Origin: an uncultured Bacteroidales bacterium
GTDB taxonomy: Bacteria > Bacteroidota > Bacteroidia > Bacteroidales > VadinHA17
DNA length: 64,000 bases
Reading direction: 5' to 3'
Assembly (NCBI GenBank): GCA_963698535.1
Contig: CAVORD010000003.1
Span: forward strand, 627-64,626
Shown here: piece after piece, positions 5,450-20,369 of the stretch
How positions within the stretch are numbered: position 1 is the first letter of the stretch
Layout of the letters: each line of letters starts with the position of its first letter
Made by a program: the position numbers and the translations under genes
The notes under the pieces: model-generated
What the model was told of the DNA's origin: nothing
Database searches by the model: none
What the model saw: only the letters and a program-made list of their open reading frames with translations

Positions 5450-6611
5450 CCAACGCGTTGTTTAGCTCCAGTCGACCATAAGCACCTGTGCCTGTTATCT
5501 GCTGAAGAGCAGTACCTGACAGTGAGATACCTCCGGTTGTATTGTCATCAGAATATGATCCGTTATTGACCAGGTTCCCCAGAACAGTAACATTATTGGC
5601 TGCCAGAATAAGGTTACCTGAACCAATTGTCAGGTCCCTGTTAACAGTACTGTTATTGTTTAATGTAAGTGAAGTTACAGGCGATACGGTCAGGTCGTAG
5701 AAATTGGTCAGTGAACTACCTGTTATTGACTGTATCCCTCCATTGAAAGTGGTAAGATTAGTTCCATAATTATATGTACCATCATTATTCAGGTCACCCT
5801 TTAAGGAAACATTTATACCATTTGAATTTAGAATACTTCGATTGTTAGAAAGTGTAAGCGATCCGTTCAGAACCAGAGGACTGACATTCAGTCCCACAGT
5901 AGCATTAGCCGCTGTTGCAGCTGTCCTTCCCGTTATTGTGAGATTGTATAATGGTACATTGGCATCAAGAGTATAGCTTTGTGCGCCATTGCTGATATTA
6001 TGAGCGAAATAGATTGTTCCTCCTGTAACCGATGATGTTCCCGGTCTAAGGTAGAGGTCACCAAATGTGGTTCCGCCGCCGCGGACAATTGTAATTGTAC
6101 CTCCGGACATATTAAAAATACTGCCTGCATTAAGGACTTCAAGCTTTGCCTTTGTGACCAAAGTGTTTCGTCCATTTACAGTTACATCACCTCCACTCTG
6201 ACCATACTTCAGAGTTCCATTGGTTGTAGCAGCTGGTCTGCGTATTTGTCCATTAACTACCAGGCTACCGCCACTGACGTCAATCTCAGAGGCACCGCTA
6301 CCGGAATACTCAATATCATTATTGTTATTTGGAGATGCTATTGGACCCACATACATATTACCGTTTACAACCGTAAGCTTACCGTCCAGGAACAGATCAT
6401 TCGTGTTAGAATTGGCATTTGCAACTAGAATATTCCTGTTACCGCTGTTTGCATAATCTATATATAGCCCAGCTGTTGCAGGGATTGTGAATGGTGTTGT
6501 GGTTGAAATTGTAAAATCGGTACCGGGATCGGTACGCATATACCTGAACGTACCATTCAAGAAGGAATAACCAGTTGTTGGTCGGAGTGTTAAGTAACCC
6601 TGCAATATCAA
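5379..6611 (-). CDS. Giant adhesin fragment 4
   Basis: A 410-aa ORF that continues fragment 3 after a shift near 6601-6620 (..TLTLDI / LQGYLTLRPTTG..). Confidence 0.75.
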   Translation of the reverse strand: MILQGYLTLRPTTGYSFLNGTFRYMRTDPGTDFTISTTTPFTIPATAGLYIDYANSGNRNILVANANSNTNDLFLDGKLTVVNGNMYVGPIASPNNNNDIEYSGSGASEIDVSGGSLVVNGQIRRPAATTNGTLKYGQSGGDVTVNGRNTLVTKAKLEVLNAGSIFNMSGGTITIVRGGGTTFGDLYLRPGTSSVTGGTIYFAHNISNGAQSYTLDANVPLYNLTITGRTAATAANATVGLNVSPLVLNGSLTLSNNRSILNSNGINVSLKGDLNNDGTYNYGTNLTTFNGGIQSITGSSLTNFYDLTVSPVTSLTLNNNSTVNRDLTIGSGNLILAANNVTVLGNLVNNGSYSDDNTTGGISLSGTALQQITGTGAYGRLELNNALGAKTNNDIISAERSGSNIRSSGY

Positions 6612-9600
6612 GAGTCAATGTCGAATCCTGTGAGGTACCCTTATTTACTGTGACTGTTTGGAATGTGGTTCGTGGGGTACCTATGGTATTTGTTATACTT
6701 GCAGAGTTAGGTCCGAAGAAAGTAACAGGCAAAAGTGTAAAATCAGCCTGAGCCCTGGTACCAACGCCATTCATAAGGCCATTGGCATTGTTTATAAGGC
6801 TACCTCCTATTGATATGTTCTGGCTTGTTGCAGCACTCCATACATCCAAGGCTGAGAATTCACCAACAATAACATTGCCATGAATAACAAAATTCTGGGT
6901 AATTGCTGCATTACCATACCATATAAGGCCACCGCCCTGGATATCAAGATTACCGTTTATGGTAATCGTCTTCGGTACCCTGACAGTAGGAGCTGTTGGA
7001 TAATTGGTATTCCATGTCGGGCAAAACCATGCGTCTGCGCTGGTACCTCTTGTAATAAGGTCACCATAGATAGTAACATCCCTGTTGGCAAAGATTACGT
7101 TGGATCCGCCAATAGGTGTAAGAATCAGGTTACCATAGGTGGCAACTGTCTGAGGTAACCAGTAAGTACCTCCGGCTGCAGGGTTCGTGGTATACAGTTC
7201 GGTAGTTCCTCTGTTTACGTTAAAATCGGAGAAATCTCCACCGGGGAATATAAAAGTTGCACCGGAATTGAAATTGGTTGTAACCCTGAAATTACCATTA
7301 CCGGTTGGGTGCGAAATAACACTGTTGAAAACTGAACTGGGATTGTATCCAACGTCCAGTGCAGATCCTGTTTCTATCTGAAGTGTCGCACAGCTGACGC
7401 TTCCGGTATTGGCAACTGTCGGATTGGTTGCCAGATAGACACTATCCTGTCCTCCGATAATAACAATATCTCTGGCTCCGGGAACCAGAGCAGGAGGATT
7501 ATCTATTGTATGTCCCGTCAACGACCATGTGGCTACATTGCTCCAGAGACCACTCTGACGACTGTAATATATCTGAGGCGCTCCAAATGAAGCATCACCA
7601 GCTGTATAGTCAGCATCGAGGAAGTCAGCACTTACTGTGGGCGCTGCCCAGTCAGTAATCAGATTGGCGGCAATATCGATCGGTGGATTAGCGTTGGTTC
7701 CGCTTCTCCATGTAAAATCACTGCTTGTGTACAATGATGGTACATAGTTGGCCTCAACGCCAACTACATCACTCTGATCATATGTAAATGAATGTATTAC
7801 AGTACCAGGAGCTATTCCCGAAAATCCTGAAGATCTGACTTTCCAGAAATATGTCAGACTTTGCCCGGTAACCGTGGCATTAGGATGCTCGTAGCCAACA
7901 GGTACAACTGTCACCGTCCCGTAAGCACCGGGTGCTACACTGAATCCTATTGAGGCAGGGGTATATTTTACCGGTTGGACAGGGGTAATCGTGGGTGCAC
8001 CAACAGGGAAGGTGAAGGTAGCTGTAGAATTGTATACCTTTGATACACCACCATCTCCTGCGTTACCTGATGATTGGATATAACGGTTGGCCCCTCCGTT
8101 TACAATTGTTGCAGAAGAACCAAGAGTTAAATTATATGTCCCAATATCAAAAAGTTTGTCCTGCGAAAATGTCAGGGCTCCGTTAACTCTCATATTTGAG
8201 ATGAGACTTACGGGTGCGGAGGCTGCATTTGTATTGTTAAGTTCTACATTAGTGAAAATACCATTACCATCAACAGATTGCAGTGCAGTTCCGTTGAGCA
8301 CCAATCTGCCTGCTCCGGTGTGCAATCCTGAATTATATACGTTACCCGCTATATTTACAGTTTTTCCATTGTCATTTAGAGTACCAAGTGCTATCCTGAA
8401 ATCACTTAACACATCTATTGTGTTCTGACTACCCTGAAGGGTAACCGTTACACCTGACGGCTTATCAATGGTCAGTTTGTTAAGTGACAGGGGCGCCGCA
8501 AGATTAACCGTAAACTGTTGCCCGGTCAACCCGTTCAGTATTGTTGTGTTTGTTCCGGTGGTATAGGTTGTTCCGGCGTCGATAAGAATATTTCTGCCAA
8601 CGCTAATATCGAAATTACCTGAAGTCAGAATACCAGAGGAAAGGGAAAGGTCATTAAGTATTACCAGAGGAGTACTCAGCAAGACATCAGAGCTACTGCT
8701 GATCCTTCCAATAGTGAGGTTACCCAGTGAGGCGTTTGTAAAAATCTTATAACTGACAGCATCAGCAAGAACCGATCCTGTAACCGGAATTACTTCCAGT
8801 GTACCGCCGGTGACATTAATATTTGCTGCAGAGGCCTTAATATCAAATGCCTCTTCTTCCCCTGCCCCAACACCCGGCACATCATATACTCTTATAGTAC
8901 CTCCTGATATCGTTACGATATTGGTAGCATTTTCAAGGTTGAAACTTCCAAATCCGCTTGATATACCATTATTTGCCCTTGCTGTATTAAGCGTAGCAAA
9001 TGAAACATCGGCAAGGTCCGCTACCGTAGCATAGGCAGAGGGTGTCCTTTGGAAGCGACCTCTAAGTATCAGAAGACCACCGGTCTGCGTGTATTGTGCT
9101 GATCCGGACGATGAAAGGAATTGCTTGGTATCGACAGTTCCACCGTTTATAATGATCTGACCTGATGCAACATTGGAAGTTATTATACCTCCCGATTCCC
9201 TTGTTGAAAGGAATCCTTCGTCGACCTGCAGTTTACCATATACTATCAGAGAACTGTTACCTCCCTGGGTGATCCCTGCAGCAGCGTCACTGGGTGCTGC
9301 CACTCCGTAGGCAGTGTTCAATTCACGATAATCATCAGCAGTTGAAAGGACAACCACATCAAGTCCGTTGAATACTATTGCACCATTTGCAGGAATAAAG
9401 AAATCTGAGCTTGGAGAGCCTCCTGTGGTGCCTTCTGTCAAAGAAGGTATTATAAGTGAACCCTCAAGAGAAAGGGTTCCGTTCCTAACCCATAATGCCT
9501 TTCGCATGTTACCATTGCTGGCAGCAGTTTCGGCGGTAAGGGTATTAGCTCCGAAGAGTCTGAAGTTGGAATATGCCGATGATAAGACAGTTAGTTTATA

Positions 9601-10497
9601 GGTCTGATCTGTTCCCTTATCAACTATAAGATTGTAGAAATCAGTTGTTCCGTTGGCAGAGATAGTATTATCCGTTGCGCCGAGAAAATATACAGAGGCC
9701 GCCCCGGATGTGGCCCCGGCAACAGTCGGTGGGAATGCATTATAAACAGGGTAAGGCAGATTTGTAAACCTTACAGTACCTGCGTTGGTGAAATTCCCGT
9801 AGATGTTAACAGTATGGAAATATGTGTAATAGTTAATGTAAGGGGCCGCTCCGCCTGCAGTAACAGCACCTATAGCAGGGTTAGTAGGACCATTACCAAC
9901 AGTAATGAAGGCACCGTTATCAACAGTTACATTTCCGTTAATGGTTAAATTAAGTTTGGCTACGGAAACATCGTCATTAATTCTGAAGGTACCGGCTTTA
10001 ACATACAGGTTACCGTTAAGAGTAAGGTTACTGAGCTGTGTGCCGGTAACGGCTGGTGCATTTATCGTAAGATTATTATAGGTGGCCTGAGTTGCCGGAA
10101 GCGTAAAACCGGAAGAGTTAAAATATTCTGTCGTTCCGCCTCCTGCATTTACAAAGGTATTTACTGTGGCCACGGGAAAATTAGTGGAAGCAAGTTGAAG
10201 AGTTCCCTGCCCCGCGAGAGAGGTTAGCACATTGGTAAACTGCTTATCCTCGAGATTCAGGAATCCCCCGTCATCGATTGTAAGATCGAGGCCTGTGGTA
10301 GTTACATCGCTGGCAAGCGTTACCGTTCTGCCGGTAAGAATAACTACCTTGTCATTATTACCCGGGATACTTGTTCCAACCTGTGTTGTTCCGCTGGGGT
10401 CTGTTGTCCATGTATTGGAGGTTCCCCAGTCGCCGGTCTGATATGAATAATAGGTTCCGGGTGCACTTGCCGACCAGTATGTGCTTGTGGTCGTCAT
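6439..10497 (-). CDS. Giant adhesin fragment 3 (1,352 aa; beta-helix-like blocks plus the second 'FPVG' module)
   Basis: This is the longest intact segment. It is N/T/G-rich with periodic LxLxxG / NNxG turns, and it carries FTFPVGAPTITP...YFWKV...DFTWRSGT at about 7695-8025. Confidence 0.85.
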   Translation of the reverse strand: MTTTSTYWSASAPGTYYSYQTGDWGTSNTWTTDPSGTTQVGTSIPGNNDKVVILTGRTVTLASDVTTTGLDLTIDDGGFLNLEDKQFTNVLTSLAGQGTLQLASTNFPVATVNTFVNAGGGTTEYFNSSGFTLPATQATYNNLTINAPAVTGTQLSNLTLNGNLYVKAGTFRINDDVSVAKLNLTINGNVTVDNGAFITVGNGPTNPAIGAVTAGGAAPYINYYTYFHTVNIYGNFTNAGTVRFTNLPYPVYNAFPPTVAGATSGAASVYFLGATDNTISANGTTDFYNLIVDKGTDQTYKLTVLSSAYSNFRLFGANTLTAETAASNGNMRKALWVRNGTLSLEGSLIIPSLTEGTTGGSPSSDFFIPANGAIVFNGLDVVVLSTADDYRELNTAYGVAAPSDAAAGITQGGNSSLIVYGKLQVDEGFLSTRESGGIITSNVASGQIIINGGTVDTKQFLSSSGSAQYTQTGGLLILRGRFQRTPSAYATVADLADVSFATLNTARANNGISSGFGSFNLENATNIVTISGGTIRVYDVPGVGAGEEEAFDIKASAANINVTGGTLEVIPVTGSVLADAVSYKIFTNASLGNLTIGRISSSSDVLLSTPLVILNDLSLSSGILTSGNFDISVGRNILIDAGTTYTTGTNTTILNGLTGQQFTVNLAAPLSLNKLTIDKPSGVTVTLQGSQNTIDVLSDFRIALGTLNDNGKTVNIAGNVYNSGLHTGAGRLVLNGTALQSVDGNGIFTNVELNNTNAASAPVSLISNMRVNGALTFSQDKLFDIGTYNLTLGSSATIVNGGANRYIQSSGNAGDGGVSKVYNSTATFTFPVGAPTITPVQPVKYTPASIGFSVAPGAYGTVTVVPVGYEHPNATVTGQSLTYFWKVRSSGFSGIAPGTVIHSFTYDQSDVVGVEANYVPSLYTSSDFTWRSGTNANPPIDIAANLITDWAAPTVSADFLDADYTAGDASFGAPQIYYSRQSGLWSNVATWSLTGHTIDNPPALVPGARDIVIIGGQDSVYLATNPTVANTGSVSCATLQIETGSALDVGYNPSSVFNSVISHPTGNGNFRVTTNFNSGATFIFPGGDFSDFNVNRGTTELYTTNPAAGGTYWLPQTVATYGNLILTPIGGSNVIFANRDVTIYGDLITRGTSADAWFCPTWNTNYPTAPTVRVPKTITINGNLDIQGGGLIWYGNAAITQNFVIHGNVIVGEFSALDVWSAATSQNISIGGSLINNANGLMNGVGTRAQADFTLLPVTFFGPNSASITNTIGTPRTTFQTVTVNKGTSQDSTLTLDIAGLLNTPTNNWLFLLEWYVQVYAYRSRYRFYNFNHNTIHNPCNSWAIYRLCKQR

Positions 10498-11077
10498 ATT
10501 CGTGGTACCGGTTATGGTAAATGAGTTGGCCCCAAAAGCCAGCGGTACCAGCAGGTGTCAGCCAGCTGCCAGCCGGAGCCCTGTACCAGATGCTGTTGGG
10601 AACAACATTACGCTCAGCAACATCGTAAGTGAATGTGGCAGTTATTGTCTTACCTCCTGTTGATGTAACAACGTCCCAGTATTTTTTAAGAAAATTGAAC
10701 CCGTTCGTAAGATCCGGGACCGCAATAACCTGAATATTTCCTGTGGTGGCACTAATCGATGTAATGCTCATTGGCGAATAGTAGCCGCCGGAACCAACGG
10801 GGAACGTTATAGGAAGGACTGTTGCAGCATTCCGGATGAGCTTTCCCGTACTGTTGGTCTCAACCATTGATGAGGAACCAAATGTTCCCTGTATTGCATC
10901 TGTGGCATTATTCGAAATTGTTAGGTTCCTTGTATCGAGCCTCAGAATTCCATTCGTAAAATTCAATATGCCTGAAAGAGTGGTATTTGCCTGAAGTGAC
11001 TTTATCACCTCCTCCGGAAATTCCAATACCCTGATAGTTAACGCTGCCAAAAACGTTCTGATCACCTGCTCTGACAT
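10358..11077 (-). CDS. Giant adhesin fragment 2 (contains the first 'FPVG' module)
   Basis: The translation reads ...TLSGILNFTNGILRLDTRNLTISNN...ITFPVGSGGYYSPMSITS...WYRAPAGSW. The frame is lost in the C4A4 run at 10529-10538. Confidence 0.75.
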   Translation of the reverse strand: MSEQVIRTFLAALTIRVLEFPEEVIKSLQANTTLSGILNFTNGILRLDTRNLTISNNATDAIQGTFGSSSMVETNSTGKLIRNAATVLPITFPVGSGGYYSPMSITSISATTGNIQVIAVPDLTNGFNFLKKYWDVVTSTGGKTITATFTYDVAERNVVPNSIWYRAPAGSWLTPAGTAGFWGQLIYHNRYHEYDDHKHILVGKCTRNLLFISDRRLGNLQYMDNRPQRNNTGWNKYPG

Positions 11078-12482
11078 AATTGACAGAGCTTACCGATCCT
11101 GCAGTTGTCGTAAAGGTTGTAATAGCGTTATTAACACCATTAAGGTTCAGTTGGTGTGCAAGACCGGCTCCGGTCATCGTAATATTTCCGGTAATATCCA
11201 GCAGGTCACCTGTTACATTGACCGTCTTAGCTGCAACAGTACCAAAATTAAGAATTCCGTCAACAGTCAGATTGCCCAGGATATCAATCGTTTTAGCGGT
11301 GGTCCCGAGTCCAACGGTAACCCCGTTGTTAATGACCATGTCATTATTTACGCTTACCGGCAGGTTAAAAGTCTTGGTATTGTTACCCCCGGCGGTCAGA
11401 CTATTGAAAACAATTGACCCGGTACCTGATCCGTTAATAAACTGGGCTCCGTTTAATCCAAAAGTAAAGAGACCTGTTGTCTGATTAAAAGCATTGGCTG
11501 TGTTACTGTCGTTAGTAACGTTGGTTCCGGTGAAAGTAACATTTCCTGTTACCTCAAAAGTTGCCGGATTACTAATTAAGATATTGCCGGCAACAGATAT
11601 ATCCCCAATAACTGTTTTCTTCCCGGTCCCGGATAAGGTAATATTCCTGTATGTTGTGGGTGCAACACTCTGGTTGGCACCATTATAGTTTACGAAACCA
11701 GTACCGGCAGTGAATGTTCCGGCTCCGATGTTGAAATCACCGCCAATATTTATTATACCTGCACCGGTTACTGTAATTGCATTCTGAACTGCAGTTACCA
11801 TATTTATACCACCCGTAACATTTACTGTTCCGGTGCTTAATGATAGGGTATGAATCCTTGCCGGGTCGGCAGTTGTGACCATCGATACTGAAGCACAATT
11901 AAGTATACCAGTACCAACGGCCAGGGTCTGATCACCATTAACATTTACGCCGGGCACTGTATAGGTTACAGCTCCTGTTACATTAAGTGTCCATGCACCG
12001 CTGAAGGTCACTGACTCCAATGCAGTGTTTCCTGGTGCGAAGGTAAGAGCACCGATAGCGTTAGCAGGAGTTAAGTTCAGTGTTACCGCATGTGAGCTTC
12101 TGATATTAACGCTTCCAGTACCTGGTGCGGCACCAGGGTAGTCTCCTGCCAAACAGTTATTCCAGGCCCCTCCCGACCACACTTGCCAGACAGCATTGCT
12201 ATTCCAGTTACCTGTTGCTCTGGTCTGGTAATCACCATTTACCTGTGCGAAGGATATTGCTGCAAATAAAAAGAGTCCGGCAAGGGATAAGAATCCCCTC
12301 CTTAAATATCCTCTAACTGAGTTTACAGACCCTCCAGGGTTATTAACCTTGTTGGATTTTTTCTCTTCAGAACTCCATAAACTCGAAAAGGAATACCTTA
12401 AATATTCCGAAAATAGGCTTTTGCGTACCATATGGTCAGGTTCAATATTTATCAATAAAAATCGTATAATCTTGTACTTCAA
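10908..12482 (-). CDS. Giant adhesin, N-terminal fragment (signal peptide plus first beta-helix-like block)
   Basis: A 524-aa ORF with a hydrophobic h-region ending in AQ. It contains repeated GxxxVxxxG / NVTG-type turns. The frame is lost near 10995-11012 and continues in ORF 10358..11077. Confidence 0.8.
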   Translation of the reverse strand: MKYKIIRFLLINIEPDHMVRKSLFSEYLRYSFSSLWSSEEKKSNKVNNPGGSVNSVRGYLRRGFLSLAGLFLFAAISFAQVNGDYQTRATGNWNSNAVWQVWSGGAWNNCLAGDYPGAAPGTGSVNIRSSHAVTLNLTPANAIGALTFAPGNTALESVTFSGAWTLNVTGAVTYTVPGVNVNGDQTLAVGTGILNCASVSMVTTADPARIHTLSLSTGTVNVTGGINMVTAVQNAITVTGAGIINIGGDFNIGAGTFTAGTGFVNYNGANQSVAPTTYRNITLSGTGKKTVIGDISVAGNILISNPATFEVTGNVTFTGTNVTNDSNTANAFNQTTGLFTFGLNGAQFINGSGTGSIVFNSLTAGGNNTKTFNLPVSVNNDMVINNGVTVGLGTTAKTIDILGNLTVDGILNFGTVAAKTVNVTGDLLDITGNITMTGAGLAHQLNLNGVNNAITTFTTTAGSVSSVNYVRAGDQNVFGSVNYQGIGISGGGDKVTSGKYHSFRHIEFYEWNSEARYKEPNNFE

Positions 12483-12911: not shown

Positions 12912-12986
12912 GGGCGATTAGCTCAGTTGGTTCAGAGCATCTGGTTTACACCCAGAGGGTCGGCGGTTCGAACCCGTCATCGCCCA
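12912..12986 (+). tRNA. tRNA-Val (anticodon TAC)
   Basis: A 75-nt cloverleaf folded by hand. The acceptor stem is GGGCGAT/ATCGCCC, the D arm GCTC..GAGC, the anticodon stem TCTGG/CCAGA with loop TTTACAC, and the T arm GGCGG-TTCGAAC-CCGTC. Confidence 0.9.
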
Positions 12987-12993
12987 CAACACA

Positions 12994-13029: not shown

Positions 13030-13103
13030 GGACGAGCACGGCTTGCCGTAGTGAGGACAATAAAAACAAAGACGGACCTCTGCGCAGCAGAGGGCGGTTT
13101 TTG

Positions 13104-13164
13104 TGTTGTTAGTGCCACCCTAACCGGCTCAACGAAGCGTAGCGGAGTTAACCCGTGTTCAAAA
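13104..13164. repeat. GC-rich intergenic repeat, copy 1
   Basis: tgttgttagtgccaccctaaccggctcaacgaagcgtagcggagttaacccg..gttcaaaa recurs 133 bp downstream. Confidence 0.85.
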
Positions 13165-13236
13165 CAAGAATCTGCGCAAATTATTAAGAGGTAAAATAAA
13201 CCGACATGACACCGAAGGTGGCATAACGGTTTGCTT

Positions 13237-13298
13237 TGTTGTTAGTGCCACCCTAACCGGCTCAACGAAGCGTAGCGGAGTTAACCCGGCGTTCAAAA
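13237..13298. repeat. GC-rich intergenic repeat, copy 2
   Basis: Near-identical to 13104..13164, with one extra base near the 3' end. Confidence 0.85.
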
Positions 13299-13326
13299 TT
13301 GCAATAGATCACTTTTGCATGATTAT

Positions 13327-13423
13327 CTAACCGGCTTCACCTGCGCCGCCACCTTCGCAAATGCTCTGGTGGCCAAAGAAGGCTTCGGTGAACGCAGTCA
13401 ACAAAGCGAAGCGGAGTTAACCC
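13327..13423. repeat. GC-rich intergenic repeat, copy 3 (split, degenerate)
   Basis: ctaaccggct (13327) and tcaacaaagcgaagcggagttaaccc (13398-13423; 2 mismatches in 26) flank a 61-bp insert. The insert contains the hairpin gccacc/ggtggc. Confidence 0.6.
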
Positions 13424-13549
13424 TATAACATTTTCAACTTCCTCGCCCTCCTAAACTTCTTAAACTTTTTTAACTAAATTCTCCTCTATTTATTTTCATT
13501 CTAAAGCCGTTTTTTACCTAACTTTAGTAGATATTAAACCCTATCCTCT

Positions 13550-14920
13550 ATGAAGTCAGGAATAAAATATTCAGCTATCATCGCCATTACCTTATCCATA
13601 ACGGCGATACTTTCCCTTTCTCTCAGACCTGAGAGCAAGTCAACGGAAGATCTGCAGGGAAAATACAAGTACAAGGATTTTGAATCTGCTAAAAAATGCC
13701 GTACATGCCATACCGGTATCTACGAACAGTGGTCACAGTCCATGATGTCGCAGGCTTACACGCATCACTGGGATGAGATAGAGTATTTCGACCTGGCTGT
13801 GGCTCACGGAGAGGTGGATCCTTTCTTTAAACCTGTGGCCGACGGTTGCAATGGGTGCCACACACCCATGGCATACATGAATGGCAGCCTGCCTCCTGCT
13901 CGTCCGGCGGAGAATACAATGGCCAACGAATCGGTATCATGCGAAGTATGCCACCTCACACGGTCGGCACAGACAGATCCCCCATTCAACTTCAGTTATC
14001 TCATTACACCGGGTTCAACAAAATATTCGTCACGTAAGGGAGGTGTTGAGTCACCTGCCCATAAGATAGTACAGAACGATTTCTTCCGTACAACCGAATT
14101 CTGTGGAAACTGCCACAATGAGAAAAATCCCTTCGACATCTGGGTAAAAAGCACCCAGCTTGAATGGAAAGAGGGTCCGTATGCAGCTGAAGGAGTAAGA
14201 TGCCAGGATTGCCACATGCCAAAAGGACCATACCAGACAGCAATTATGGGTTCCAAATATGATGATGCCCGCCTTCATCTCTTCCACGGCGCCCACGATC
14301 CGGGCAAGGTGCGAGGAGTGATAGAATTAAGGATACAGCCCGACATAAGGCTGGCTGAACCCGGGGAGACTGTAGTCTTTACCGTGGCTCTCTTTAACCA
14401 GAAAACCGGACATAAGTTCCCTACAGGATCAGTTGAAGACAGACTGGTATGGCTCGAGGTGGAAGCTGTGGATTCGAAAGGCAAAAAGTATCATCTCGAC
14501 GTAGATAAGAAAGGCTTTGAGGGTGAAGAGTACACAATTTCCGGTGATTACCTGGCTTACCAGGATATGGGTATCCCTCTCAGGATAAAGGACTTCAAAG
14601 GTGTCCAGCGCGACGGCATCCCGGCGGGTAACAGGATGTTCAGAATGCCTTACTTCGATAAGGACGGACAGATGACCATTATGCAATGGAACACCCATAA
14701 ACTGGGTACAGACTACCGAATTGGTCCGCGAGAGACAAAAGTTGAAACATTTACCTACATGTTACCATGGGATGTAGCACCCGGAGAACTGGTCGTAACA
14801 GCCCGACTGAACTACCAACTCCTCGTTAAACCGGTTGCCGATTTTCTTAAGGTACCCTCTGAAGAGTCTGATGTGCTTGAGGTAAACTACCATTCAACCA
14901 GGATTAAAATTCTACCCTGA
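13550..14920 (+). CDS. Pentaheme c-type cytochrome with a heme-free C-terminal domain of about 230 aa
   Basis: It has five CXXCH motifs (CRTCH, CNGCH, CEVCH, CGNCH, CQDCH), all within aa 50-222. The N-terminus is a hydrophobic signal or anchor. Confidence 0.85.
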   Translation: MKSGIKYSAIIAITLSITAILSLSLRPESKSTEDLQGKYKYKDFESAKKCRTCHTGIYEQWSQSMMSQAYTHHWDEIEYFDLAVAHGEVDPFFKPVADGCNGCHTPMAYMNGSLPPARPAENTMANESVSCEVCHLTRSAQTDPPFNFSYLITPGSTKYSSRKGGVESPAHKIVQNDFFRTTEFCGNCHNEKNPFDIWVKSTQLEWKEGPYAAEGVRCQDCHMPKGPYQTAIMGSKYDDARLHLFHGAHDPGKVRGVIELRIQPDIRLAEPGETVVFTVALFNQKTGHKFPTGSVEDRLVWLEVEAVDSKGKKYHLDVDKKGFEGEEYTISGDYLAYQDMGIPLRIKDFKGVQRDGIPAGNRMFRMPYFDKDGQMTIMQWNTHKLGTDYRIGPRETKVETFTYMLPWDVAPGELVVTARLNYQLLVKPVADFLKVPSEESDVLEVNYHSTRIKILP

Positions 14921-14948
14921 AATTAAACCAGTTATAATACACAACACC

Positions 14949-16139
14949 ATGAAAAAGTCCATATTACCCATTCTTATAGCAGTAATACTGCTATTCGGAA
15001 TCAATAATCATTCTTACTCAATCCCTGCCTTCGCCAGAAAATATCAGATATCATGTCAGGTGTGCCATGCACCAGCCATGCCGCGACTTAAGGCGTTCGG
15101 TGAAGAGTTTGCCGGAAACGGGTTCAGATTAGCAGAATACGAATCACCACGATATTTCATGCCTGCCGGTGATGAGAAACTATCACTCTTTAGAGAAGTC
15201 CCTCTTGCATTCCGCCTCGATGGATTTGCTACATTTAACTACGGAGAGGAAGGAAAACTCGATTTTGGATCTCCGTTTGTTCTTAAGATCCTTTCAGGAG
15301 GAGAGCTATCGGAAAAACTATCATATTACTTCTATTTCCTGCTGAATGAAAGAGGCGAAATTGCAGGGGTAGAGGACGCTTTTCTTATGTACAGCGACCT
15401 TTTTAATACGGGAATAAACTTCTACATCGGACAGTTTCAGGCATCTGACCCCCTCTTTAAGGGTGAACTGCGCTATACAATGGAGCCTTACCAAATTTAT
15501 GATGCTTCACCGGGAAACTCTTCTGTCAATCTAAAGTATGAACGGGGTATTATCCTGGAGAAAGGATTTAGCACCGGAACAACCGTCGTGGCAGAGATAG
15601 TTAACGGGAGCGGACTTGGAGCGGCCGGAGAAAGTTTTGTTTTCGACAAGGACAAGTATAAAAACTTCATGCTCCGCCTATCGCAGTCTATAGGCGACAA
15701 GGTGAGTATCGGAGTCTTCGGCTACAGTGGCAATGAGGATCTCGAAAACACAACCGGTACCTTTGTCAGCAGGATAACTATGATGGGCCCCGATCTCAAG
15801 ATAAACCTCGATGATAAACTGATCCTGAACCTTCAGTATTTAAGACGCACAGACTCCGATGTTTTCCTCGAATCTGACGGTTCAATGAACAGTGACATAA
15901 TGACCCACGGTGGATTTGCGGAGGTCATCTTCGCACCTAAAGGTGATAATAGCTCATGGTACCTGACGGGTCTTGTAAACTGGATCGAATCGGATATCGA
16001 CGACCTTGATTATATGTCGGCAACGATGCATGCCGGATACCTTCTCAGAAGAAACGTGAGGCTGGTATCAGAATATACAAGGGTTCTTTCCGGTAACCAG
16101 TACGGTAAAGCAAGCATTGGCTTCGTTTCCGCCTTTTAA
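14949..16139 (+). CDS. Fused monoheme cytochrome / outer-membrane beta-barrel (Cyc2-like cytochrome-porin)
   Basis: A signal peptide is followed by a single CXXCH (SCQVCH, aa 35-40), about 12 aa into the mature protein. The remaining 350 aa or so show alternating-hydrophobic beta-strand patterning and end in a C-terminal ...GFVSAF. The gene starts 28 bp after the pentaheme gene. Confidence 0.65.
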   Translation: MKKSILPILIAVILLFGINNHSYSIPAFARKYQISCQVCHAPAMPRLKAFGEEFAGNGFRLAEYESPRYFMPAGDEKLSLFREVPLAFRLDGFATFNYGEEGKLDFGSPFVLKILSGGELSEKLSYYFYFLLNERGEIAGVEDAFLMYSDLFNTGINFYIGQFQASDPLFKGELRYTMEPYQIYDASPGNSSVNLKYERGIILEKGFSTGTTVVAEIVNGSGLGAAGESFVFDKDKYKNFMLRLSQSIGDKVSIGVFGYSGNEDLENTTGTFVSRITMMGPDLKINLDDKLILNLQYLRRTDSDVFLESDGSMNSDIMTHGGFAEVIFAPKGDNSSWYLTGLVNWIESDIDDLDYMSATMHAGYLLRRNVRLVSEYTRVLSGNQYGKASIGFVSAF

Positions 16140-16229: not shown

Positions 16230-16237
16230 TACTTTTG
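16230..16237 (+). promoter_or_regulatory. -7 promoter element (TACTTTTG) upstream of kup
   Basis: A TAnnTTTG match lies 27 nt upstream of the ATG at 16265. Confidence 0.4.
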
Positions 16238-18211: not shown

Positions 18212-18339
18212 CTCCCAGAGCATTCATAACTCTCCCTTTTAAAGACAAACCTTTGTGCTGAAGAGATTATTTCTCCTCCAATATTCTGTTTTTGGCAACA
18301 ACTGCTATCTCATTTTGTTACTATAGAAAATATAGTGCT

Positions 18340-20369
18340 ATGACCGATCGCCATACGAACAGACTAATTAAGGAAACCAGCCCATATCTTCTGCAACATG
18401 CCCATAACCCGGTCGACTGGCATGCATGGAACGAAGAGACCCTTGAAAAGGCAAAGAGGGAAAACAAACCATTGCTGGTAAGCATAGGATATTCGTCCTG
18501 TCACTGGTGTCATGTAATGGAGGCAGAAAGCTTCGAAGATGAAGCTACGGCTGCCATTATGAATGAAAATTATATCCCGGTAAAGATAGACAGAGAGGAG
18601 AGACCCGATCTGGATCACATCTACATGACTGCCGTACAGCTGATTACGCGTTCCGGCGGATGGCCACTGAATGTGATAGCCCTCCCCGATGGCACACCTG
18701 TATGGGGTGGCACTTACTTCCCTAATGAAAAGTGGAAATCTGTCCTGATGGAGATAGCAGGAATGTTCAGAGAGAAACCGGATGAGATCAGTGACTATGC
18801 AAAAAACCTTGCCCGGGGAATCGTTGATTCATCACTCGTCCCTGATACTTATTTTGAGGCGGCCGATATCGGACTTTTAAAGGAAGGCCTGGAAAAATGG
18901 AAGCGTGCTTTCGACCCCGTTTACGGCGGACAAACAGGTGCACCGAAATTTCCGATGCCTGTAAACATCTCATTCCTTCTTCATTGGGGATATGAGATGA
19001 AGGATGAAACTATACTCAAACATGTTGAACTGACTCTTGAAAAAATTGCAATGGGAGGCATCTTCGACCAGGCAGGGGGAGGATTTGCACGGTACAGTGT
19101 CGACATAAAGTGGAAAGTGCCGCACTTCGAGAAGATGCTCTACGATAATGCACAGCTTATCTCCGCATACTCTAATGGTTACAGGCAATTCCGTAATCCT
19201 CTTTTCAGGGAGGTCGTTTATAAAACTTTCGAATTTCTTAACCGGGAGATGAACGACAGTTCAGGCTTTTTCTATTCAGCTCTTGATGCGGACAGTGAGG
19301 GAGAGGAAGGCAGGTTTTATACATGGACCATAAAGGAACTTGATGATCTGAAGTTACCTGATTATGAGCTGTTCAGGTCGTACTATTCAATAGATCCGGT
19401 TACATATCTGGGATAACGACCGTTACATTCTGCACCGTAATATTGATGATGCCGGCTTCCGTGAAGGAGCACGGATTAAGTGCTTCCGGTCTGGCAGAAA
19501 AGAAAGAGATATGGAGCTCGTCGTTGCTAAAATTCAGGGAGAAAAGGGTAAGACCTTCACTCGACGATAAATGTCTTGCCGGATGGAATGGACTTATGCT
19601 CACTTCTCTGGTGGAAGCATACAAAGCGTTCGGGGATGATATATTTCTGGAGGCTGCGGTTAAACTGGCCGGAAAGATATCCGCCACGATCAAACATAAT
19701 AAGGGATTAGTAAGAAGGAATCTTAAAAATGCGGATGAGAGCACTCCGGTATTTCTGGATGATTTTGCCCTTGTCGCACAAGGACTCATAGCCCTGTCTG
19801 AAGTTGATGATAACAGACAATGGTTATCCGAATCTGTCAGCCTTACAGACAAAACAACTGAACTTTTTTATGACAGTAAGGACTCAATGTTCTGCTTTAA
19901 TCCGGTTGGGTCTAAAGTTCTGGTTACCAATTATTTTGAGACATACGACAATGTTATTCCCTCATCAAATGCAACTTTGGCAGGGAACCTCTTCCGTCTG
20001 GCCCGTCTGGCATCCAATAGTACATATCTGTCAATATCTGAAAAAATGACCCGCAAGATGTGGGGCCATGCTGCAGCCAATCCAAACGGATTTGCCGAGT
20101 GGTGTAAGGTAATTCTATACCAGTCGTTACCTTTCAGCGAGATCATTATCACAGGCGGTGAAGCAGAAAAGAGACTTAAGGAGATAGCATCACTGTATAT
20201 CCCTGGATCGGCTACAGCCATTTCGAAGAAAGAGGATAGTACTCTTCTGTTTAAGGGCAGACATAAAGAAAGAAAGACACAAATATGGATTTGCGAGAAC
20301 AGCCAGTGCAAGATGCCTGTTGAAAATGTTCCGGAGGCAATTAAAATACTGACTGCAAAAAGACAATAA
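18340..20369 (+). CDS. Thioredoxin-domain (DUF255/YyaL-like) protein with an N-acylglucosamine-epimerase-like fold; two closely spaced frameshifts
   Basis: It contains [17 protein letters not shown] and [13 protein letters not shown]. The frame leaves near 19405 and returns near 19458 (ORFs 18292..19416 and 19443..20369). Confidence 0.8.

Follow-up and report, generated by a model that had tools for sequence, protein, structure and literature searches.

A pentahaem cytochrome gene coupled to a Cyc2-type cytochrome-porin gene in Bacteroidales and Ignavibacteria: a probable two-protein outer-membrane electron conduit

Here we analysed two adjacent forward-strand genes in a stretch of 64,000 nucleotides (nt) from an uncultured Bacteroidales bacterium (assembly GCA_963698535.1, contig CAVORD010000003.1). 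The whole stretch is called the window below, and all coordinates are positions in it. The first gene encodes a pentahaem c-type cytochrome and the second a cytochrome-porin, and these are the sole multihaem or clearly cytochrome-like open reading frames (ORFs) in the window. The features of the pair, with amino acid (aa) positions and with the AlphaFold2 (AF2) models or Foldseek searches named where domains were taken from them, are the following:

13550..14920, + strand: pentahaem c-type cytochrome gene of the PHC family, 456 aa, ATG start, stop codon ending at 14920
13550..13621, + strand: N-terminal export signal or signal-anchor helix, aa 1-24 (AF2 helix 2-24), without lipobox
13667..14299, + strand: alpha-helical domain that binds the haems, aa ~40-250, and holds the five CXXCH motifs
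13697-13711, 13847-13861, 13940-13954, 14102-14116 and 14201-14215, + strand: the five CXXCH motifs, from the translation
14300..14917, + strand: haem-free beta-sandwich domain of immunoglobulin-like (Ig-like) fold, aa 251-456 (AF2 strands, Foldseek)
14408-14431, + strand: invariant GH-x-x-P-x-G-S loop within the Ig-like domain, aa 287-294
14921..14948, + strand: intergenic spacer, 28 nt, without terminator or promoter motif
14949..16139, + strand: Cyc2-family fused monohaem cytochrome-porin gene, 396 aa, intact, ATG at 14949
15018..15089, + strand: Cyc2 signature S-I-P-A-F-A-R-K-Y-QIS-CQVCH-APAM-PRL, aa 24-47, after the signal peptide of aa 1-24
15204..16136, + strand: 16-strand beta-barrel, aa 86-396, with C-terminal Phe (AF2, Foldseek)

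The pentahaem ORF is intact and has the length of its orthologs. A preliminary description of this DNA, made from the sequence alone, had placed all five CXXCH motifs within aa 50-222, and all five were located there (C50-H54, C100-H104, C131-H135, C185-H189 and C218-H222), with none in aa 223-456. The last 230 residues or so, which it had taken as haem-free and beta-rich, are so in the AF2 model (predicted local distance difference test, pLDDT, 88; predicted template-modelling score, pTM, 0.83): the haem region is helical and a beta-sandwich extends from about residue 251, with strands at 258-264, 274-283, 299-307, 313-316, 396-404, 412-423 and 442-454 (pLDDT 94-98). The top and sole full-length Foldseek match of the model was 5ze8, the structure of the low-potential pentahaem cytochrome c552 of Thermochromatium tepidum (E 2.6e-19, TM 0.61/0.72), the remaining matches covering the haem-free domain alone, as Ig-like or CARDB-type folds. 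Searched as a single sequence against the PDB, the protein also matched 5ZE8 (E 4.3e-5, three collinear stretches), and a profile of 20 diverse members was collinear with 5ze8 over both domains (E 3.5e-28) and matched MccSep (9wt8/9wt9) at E 2e-15. In the alignment of 20 diverse family members the five haem motifs are invariant, as are H288, P291, R298, W301, R390 and P406 in the haem-free half, and the Ig-like domain is conserved to the same degree as the haem domain. The family is large, a search of 1.84 billion representative proteins yielding 2496 clusters of homologs at E<1e-3, many of them full length. Pfam gave generic multihaem matches only, and the best NCBIfam match was the ExtKL model NF040886 (62.1 bits, E 3.5e-17, cut-off 250). 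A PHC family uniting ExtKL, Gsu2801, T. tepidum c552 and the pentahaem cytochromes of cable bacteria has been proposed by structural homology (PMC11976967). The window protein is a member of this family, its closest solved relative is T. tepidum c552, and its long haem-free half corresponds, as modelled, to the Ig-like domain typical of the family.

Profile searches, which the preliminary description had suggested as a check, gave no clean placement in a characterised enzyme family, since the models for NrfA, HAO, NapC, TorC and MtrA all scored under their cut-offs. For NrfA the scores were 16.1 against a cut-off of 24.1 (PF02335) and about 11 against 600-690 (TIGR03152 and NF008339), and the protein has no CXXCK motif. 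The NapC/NirT/CymA identity was rejected on 29 bits with PF03264, over aa 180-230 only, and 11.6 against 310.6 with TIGR02161; the 'NapC/NirT' names that pentahaem homologs carry in databases stem from a 50-residue local motif match. HAO and TorC identities were rejected on hidden Markov model scores under the cut-offs, and that of MtrA/DmsE on 20 against 192 bits (TIGR03508), the MtrC model reaching 14 against 209 bits.

No Pfam or NCBIfam family matches the porin protein. Its homologs number at least 3674; a Pfam domain occurs in none of them, and all source names shown for these are 'hypothetical protein'. Published criteria for Cyc2 comprise a signal peptide, one CXXCH, an upstream AXPXFAR[Q/K][T/Y] motif described as 'unique to Cyc2', PXL four residues downstream, a length of at least 365 residues and a 16-strand OprO/OprP-like porin (Keffer et al. 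2021, PMC8406198). In the window protein a signal peptide was read by eye as MKKSILPILIAVILLFGINNHSYS before IPAF..., with charge at its N-terminus, then a hydrophobic core, and with small residues at -3/-1, the orthologs showing ...SFA before and IPSFARKY after the same site. The haem motif is CQVCH at aa 36-40, and exactly one CXXCH is present in 108/108 orthologs. SIPAFARKY agrees with the upstream motif at 8/9 positions, with Ser in place of the first Ala, which is present in 93 of the 108 orthologs; F, R, K and Y are near-invariant, and the ortholog consensus reads A-I-P-A-F-A-R-K-Y-x-x-S-CxxCH...PxL. That first Ala appears to be the -1 residue for signal peptidase, so that the Ser of the window would be a conservative change. 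The window motif ends 3 residues before the Cys and the published position is '5 amino acids upstream', the counting convention of which is unclear (PMC8406198). PXL is present as CQVCH-APAM-PRL and is kept in the orthologs with a variant shifted by one residue, and the length of 396 aa lies close to the ortholog median of 399 aa. The AF2 model (mean pLDDT 68.5) has 16 strands over aa 86-395, with barrel blocks mostly at pLDDT 64-91 and two loop segments below 50; Foldseek returned OprP (2o4v) first (E 1e-12), followed by 16-strand general porins. A C-terminal F is found in 104/108 orthologs. The protein is therefore, by the published motif and structure criteria and in every testable point of them, a member of the Cyc2 family, homologs of which have already been reported in metagenome-assembled genomes (MAGs) of Bacteroidetes and Ignavibacteriaceae (PMC6344600).

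Synteny in relatives had been set beforehand as a test of the pair, and was examined in 80 loci from a one-genome-per-species scan seeded with 6 sequences and in another 80 from a metagenome scan seeded with distant relatives. The counts of downstream genes are taken over loci with at least 700 nt of sequence past the pentahaem gene and are split at 50% identity to the window protein. At 50% identity or more, 112 of 115 loci have a Cyc2-like gene as the immediate downstream neighbour in the same orientation; below 50% this is so in 0/23, the contexts of distant clades all coming from the single metagenome scan (a profile-seeded homolog search gave only the clade of 57-79% identity). The gap within the pair has a median of 24 nt and is replaced in several loci by overlaps of 4-8 nt. 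No other neighbour family is conserved around the pair in these loci, the next commonest being found in 20/80 and mostly on the opposite strand, and in separately made, Pfam-labelled gene calls the genes to either side of the pair are housekeeping genes. Because the Cyc2-like gene has this frequency and other neighbours reach 20/80 at most, the pairing is far beyond chance. The hosts of the pair are Bacteroidales MAGs, Lentimicrobiaceae, MAGs of Mariniphaga/Marinilabilia/Salinivirga type, Melioribacteraceae, Kapaibacteria and the isolate Rosettibacter primus; its cultured carriers are R. primus, R. firmus and Melioribacter strains.

Some individual loci showed further features. A sister pentahaem clade of about 30% identity, which has no Cyc2 partner, includes three loci (L119 4269-7278, L124 4145-7136 and L139 3007-7278) in which the pentahaem gene lies directly downstream of ORFs resembling, by eye, desulfoferrodoxin/neelaredoxin, Ni-superoxide dismutase (HCEIPCGVYDD) and rubrerythrin/ferritin, which hints at a link of this sister clade to oxidative stress. 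In another lineage the pair is flanked on both sides by ferritin-like DUF2202 genes (L164 6842-7576 and 10787-11362; L165 likewise), and a link of the pair to iron is possible there. Two Bacteroidales-like copies of the pair are filed under a Chloroflexota MAG (L047, 75% identity) and an Actinomycetota MAG (P0230, 68%), labels that most likely reflect mis-binning. As for the haem motifs in the 118 pentahaem proteins of the paired clade, the first is CX2CH in 86, the window protein included, and CX3CH in 29 (for example CGSACH; L067 5974-7329, L080 5974-7320), and the total is five in 115.

The two genes of the window lie on the same strand and, as had been described, 28 bp apart, between the stop ending at 14920 and the ATG at 14949. 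The absence of a visible terminator between them also held on closer analysis: no terminator-like site was detected there on the + strand, and the folding energy of the spacer (-3 kcal/mol, z 0.53) is no better than that of shuffled sequence. The element TAnnTTTG, a Bacteroidetes-type -7 promoter element, is absent from the 28-nt spacer. Candidate elements on either side of the pair are:

13519..13526, + strand: candidate -7 element TAACTTTA, one mismatch to TAnnTTTG, 24 nt before the pentahaem start, of low confidence
16230-16237, + strand: perfect -7 motif TACTTTTG, 20 nt ahead of the ATG of kup (16250)

No other perfect TAnnTTTG lies in non-coding sequence nearby; one more is located at 15758, inside the porin coding sequence. 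The motif at 16230 would mark the downstream boundary of a two-gene unit, and the kup start is probably 16250, not the TTG at 16235 given by the ORF finder. A sigma-70 promoter scan found no enrichment over shuffles. The lack of a hairpin or TAnnTTTG in the spacer, the perfect TAnnTTTG before kup and the short conserved gaps support the view that the pentahaem and porin genes would form a two-gene operon.

With regard to its location, the pentahaem protein shows no visible secretion signal beyond its Sec-type N-terminus. A lipobox-like motif is present in only 1 of 107 orthologs, the ignavibacterial orthologs have classical signal-peptide cleavage sites (A-Q before and T/S after the cut), and the C-terminus, an integral strand of the Ig-like domain in the AF2 model, shows nothing resembling a type IX secretion tail. 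The protein is most likely periplasmic, and its Bacteroidales form may remain anchored to the inner membrane.

The relationship to MccSep permits a comparison at the level of individual residues. MccSep (ExtKL, GSU2937-2936), a multihaem selenoprotein of Geobacter sulfurreducens, is a homotetrameric polysulfide reductase whose active site consists of a haem 2 ligated by C239 and located beside the selenocysteine U325, a residue that its Ig-like domain carries on a D-G-U-P loop (bioRxiv 10.1101/2025.11.18.688581). The profile alignment places C239/C240 of MccSep on Val199/Lys200 of the window protein, with no Cys in the segment, and U325 corresponds to Ser294 in the loop G-H-K-F-P-T-G-S, where the local alignment is weak alone and is anchored by the GH..P.G motif. 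A strict MccSep/ExtKL enzyme was thus rejected, as the catalytic Cys and selenocysteine are absent and NF040886 scores under its cut-off. Val199, Lys200 and Ser294 are invariant in 118/118 proteins of the paired clade, and the same proteins have five invariant His outside the haem motifs (H72, H171, H243, H249 and H288). Since these match the number of haems, they are consistent with bis-His ligation of all five, a condition that would fit, and does not prove, an electron-transfer role; the pentahaem protein is in this respect consistent with a relay rather than an MccSep-type enzyme.

Two related proteins differ around the same positions. In 5ze8 chain A a Cys near residue 233 ('PLCQT') lies within one alignment position of MccSep C239 and an Ala occupies the selenocysteine position, so T. 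tepidum c552 may hold a His/Cys haem, fitting its suggested sulfur role. In 6 of 17 sister-clade proteins (L137-L154, 45-49% identity) a Cys is present at window position 295, beside the selenocysteine-equivalent Ser294, and these six could be Cys-type catalytic relatives.

We consider it probable that the pair represents a dedicated six-haem, two-protein outer-membrane electron conduit in which the pentahaem protein serves as the periplasmic partner of the Cyc2-type porin. In the mechanism that we propose, both proteins would be made from one transcript and the Cyc2-like protein would be the trans-outer-membrane element, its haem exchanging electrons with soluble redox species that reach the 16-strand pore or enter it. 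Complexes of Fe(II) or Fe(III) are the most likely such species, and quinones of humic type are possible ones. For Cyc2, a haem reacting with Fe2+ at or in the pore has been proposed (PMC8406198). The pentahaem protein, with its five-haem cap and Ig-like stalk, would dock at the periplasmic face of the Cyc2-like protein and relay or buffer electrons between the haem of the latter and generic periplasmic or inner-membrane carriers encoded elsewhere. Physical docking, electron flow, substrate and co-transcription are all matters that we infer. The family offers a precedent in Geobacter, where ExtKL is encoded beside the outer-membrane porin gene extI (PMC11976967). The preliminary description had likened the two genes to a minimal porin-cytochrome conduit; the pairing supports this comparison, with the refinement that a 16-strand barrel with its own haem would leave no room for the 45-kDa pentahaem protein to sit inside as MtrA does in MtrB, and that docking would have to take place from the periplasm.

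Several observations weigh against this conduit. The N-terminal cytochrome part of the porin is modelled at a pLDDT of only about 30. Pairwise distances show a correlation of r = 0.93 between the two proteins (Mantel 0/999), which fits inheritance as a unit, but such a mirror-tree correlation is expected for any two vertically co-inherited genes. At three loci (L068, with a fumarase gene downstream, L095 and L100) the pentahaem gene occurs without the porin gene, and the protein can therefore persist alone. Finally, G293, S294, E296, R298 and W301 of the pocket are invariant in the paired clade together with K200, and an invariant pocket at the former selenocysteine position could be a catalytic or ligand-binding site.

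The loci that lack the porin gene, together with the sister pentahaem clades that stand alone, would be expected if the two proteins acted independently and shared only regulation, export or haem maturation; another possibility of this kind is that the pentahaem protein forms an extracellular filament like the archaeal AvECN nanowire, a relation between c552 and AvECN having been proposed (PMC11976967). We regard these explanations as very improbable. Independence is difficult to reconcile with a pairing kept in 112/115 loci across two classes while other neighbours turn over and gaps shrink down to overlaps, and a filament with a protein in which only a Sec-type N-terminus is visible, the C-terminus is built into the Ig-like domain and a lipobox-like motif is nearly absent from the orthologs.

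The pocket also bears on a third explanation, according to which the pentahaem protein would be a periplasmic reductase of small inorganic or sulfur/selenium species and the porin its substrate channel or electron supply. MccSep, of the same fold, reduces polysulfide, has no known outer-membrane route for its substrate, and is encoded near extI; its selenocysteine-bearing loop is invariant here as G-H-x-F-P-x-G-S-x-E-x-R, with K200 invariant at the Cys-equivalent position, and conservation of the Ig-like domain equals that of the haem domain. However, both catalytic residues of MccSep are replaced (C239 by Val199 and U325 by Ser294, with Lys200 at the adjacent C240), the ExtKL model gives 62 bits where 250 are required, the five invariant extra His can satisfy five bis-His haems, and a plain substrate channel would have no use for a haem of its own. 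We hold this enzymatic alternative to be rather improbable.

Comparison with known systems places the conduit that we favour among several families. The window porin shares with Cyc2 of A. ferrooxidans, Cyt572 of Leptospirillum and Cyc2PV-1 of Mariprofundus the signal peptide, the single CXXCH, the signature, the PXL, the length above 365 aa and the OprP-like barrel. Known Cyc2 systems pass electrons to mono- or dihaem carriers or to rusticyanin, which in A. ferrooxidans are encoded in a larger cyc2-cyc1-cox-rus operon, the carriers of other Cyc2 proteins being encoded elsewhere in the genome. Here, by contrast, the gene is strictly coupled to one for a PHC-type pentahaem protein, and its hosts are Bacteroidales and Ignavibacteria, which are not known iron oxidisers. 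The pentahaem protein in turn resembles T. tepidum c552 (PDB 5ZE8; Chen et al. 2019) in combining a five-haem domain with an Ig-like domain, but shares only 19% identity with it in the structural alignment and has Lys200 where 5ZE8 has a Cys within one position; a role of T. tepidum c552 in sulfur metabolism has been suggested (PMC11976967). With ExtKL/MccSep of the ExtHIJKL cluster (9WT8/9WT9) it shares the five-haem cap, the Ig-like stalk, an extended hairpin and a gene adjoining that of an outer-membrane porin, there extI, and it differs in having Val199/Lys200 and Ser294 where MccSep has the His/Cys-ligated haem 2 (C239) and the selenocysteine. ExtI is not known to carry a haem and has been described as having about 21 strands, and hence would not be Cyc2-like. 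In MtrAB, MtoAB and PioAB a periplasmic multihaem gene and an outer-membrane barrel gene are likewise adjacent and serve trans-outer-membrane electron transfer; in those Mtr-type complexes a decahaem wire is threaded through a haem-free barrel of 26-28 strands, whereas the barrel of the window has 16 strands and its own haem, and its multihaem partner is globular, five-haem and of unrelated fold. The sPHC/lPHC proteins of cable bacteria and Gsu2801 belong to the same proposed pentahaem family, but unlike in the window clade their genes have no neighbouring porin gene, and some are fused to truncated haemoglobins (PMC11976967).

In which direction electrons would flow through such a conduit is a more delicate matter, and here we lean only slightly towards electron export, that is, reduction of soluble extracellular acceptors by anaerobes, over Fe(II) oxidation. 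We counted in favour of export that the record titles place the hosts for the most part in digesters, in anoxic sediments and in springs that are sulfidic or rich in iron, that Melioribacter reduces Fe(III) (PMC6137239), and that the closest relatives of the pentahaem protein are a low-potential cytochrome (5ZE8; PMC11976967) and a reductase (MccSep). On the opposite side, Fe(II) oxidation is the activity of each of the three Cyc2 proteins that have been characterised biochemically (PMC8406198).

This last fact leads to the strongest competitor of an export conduit, a canonical Cyc2 iron-oxidation module in which the pentahaem protein takes the place of Cyc1/c4-type carriers, accepting the Fe(II) electrons in the periplasm, and these go on to a terminal reductase that depends on cytochrome c, such as a cbb3 oxidase, a clade II NosZ or a peroxidase. 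Tested Cyc2 proteins of all three clusters oxidise Fe(II) (PMC8406198), the porin agrees with every testable Cyc2 criterion, and the synteny marks the pentahaem protein as a dedicated Cyc2 partner, all of which would be expected for such a module. Yet many host MAGs derive from anaerobic digesters or from sediments that are sulfidic or anoxic, settings poor in oxidants, the pentahaem relatives are a low-potential cytochrome and a reductase, and the contexts examined show no gene for an oxidase or a reductase linked with the pair. We therefore take iron oxidation to be a serious explanation, with roughly one chance in four.

The surroundings of the pair contain the following features:

12912-12987: tRNA-Val, followed by two terminator-like hairpins
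13104-13423: three-copy repeat of 26-52 nt, core TCAACGAAGCGTAGCGGAGTTAACCC, with spacing of 133 and 136 nt

The position of the pair just after tRNA-Val and a patch of repeats is thus as had been described. The TCAACGAAGCGTAGCGGAGTTAACCC repeat follows the terminator hairpins of tRNA-Val, precedes the pentahaem gene and occurs nowhere else in the window; Rfam found nothing beyond the tRNA in this repeat-rich leader, apart from a sub-threshold FourU match at 13030-13118, and possible identities of the repeat are a small repetitive element and a leader. A genomic island at tRNA-Val was considered and rejected, as the GC content is typical of the window and the tRNA adjacency is missing in 51/53 related loci; any tRNA within 6 kb was found in 2/53, neither of them tRNA-Val. 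Because the tRNA adjacency is not conserved and the GC content is ordinary, the setting is incidental. The neighbouring genes, which the preliminary description had called functionally unrelated, are an adhesin-like ORF, kup, a DUF255 thioredoxin-like gene and an amidase, and none is related to redox functions. Two of them are interrupted: the giant adhesin-like gene (6439-12482, - strand) lies in three overlapping ORFs (12482..10908, 11077..10358 and 10497..6439) and the DUF255/thioredoxin-like gene (18292-20369, + strand) is split in two frames (18292-19416 and 19443-20369). These splits are frameshifts of an error-prone assembly or pseudogenes.

Cyc2 and the PHC family have each been described before, and what would be new is a Cyc2-based conduit with a dedicated pentahaem partner; full-text literature searches on Cyc2 with pentahaem, ExtKL or the host groups returned no description of a Cyc2-PHC pair. 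Cyc2 serves as the main marker gene for microbial iron oxidation in genomes and metagenomes, for example in FeGenie, and to our knowledge the partner with which it exchanges electrons in the periplasm is ill defined beyond a small number of model iron oxidisers. The strict coupling of Cyc2 to a PHC-family pentahaem cytochrome in these lineages names a likely partner and a testable two-protein conduit, and links Cyc2 with ExtKL/MccSep/c552, families that have been studied separately until now. Since cultured carriers of the pair exist, the hypothesis is directly testable. The frequent occurrence of Cyc2 in anaerobic Bacteroidetes and Ignavibacteria (PMC6344600) has so far been without explanation. 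In a bolder version, which we advance tentatively, the pair may be a distinct and very widespread extracellular electron transfer module of anaerobic Bacteroidota and Ignavibacteriota, with Cyc2 as an outlet that reduces soluble Fe(III), humics or shuttles and receives its electrons from a low-potential pentahaem partner, or else the invariant pocket of Lys200 and Ser294 may constitute a novel catalytic haem site. Matches to 'cyc2' in these taxa may not signify iron oxidation and, if the electron-outlet reading is true, metagenomic 'cyc2' genes scored as iron oxidation would mark the opposite process.

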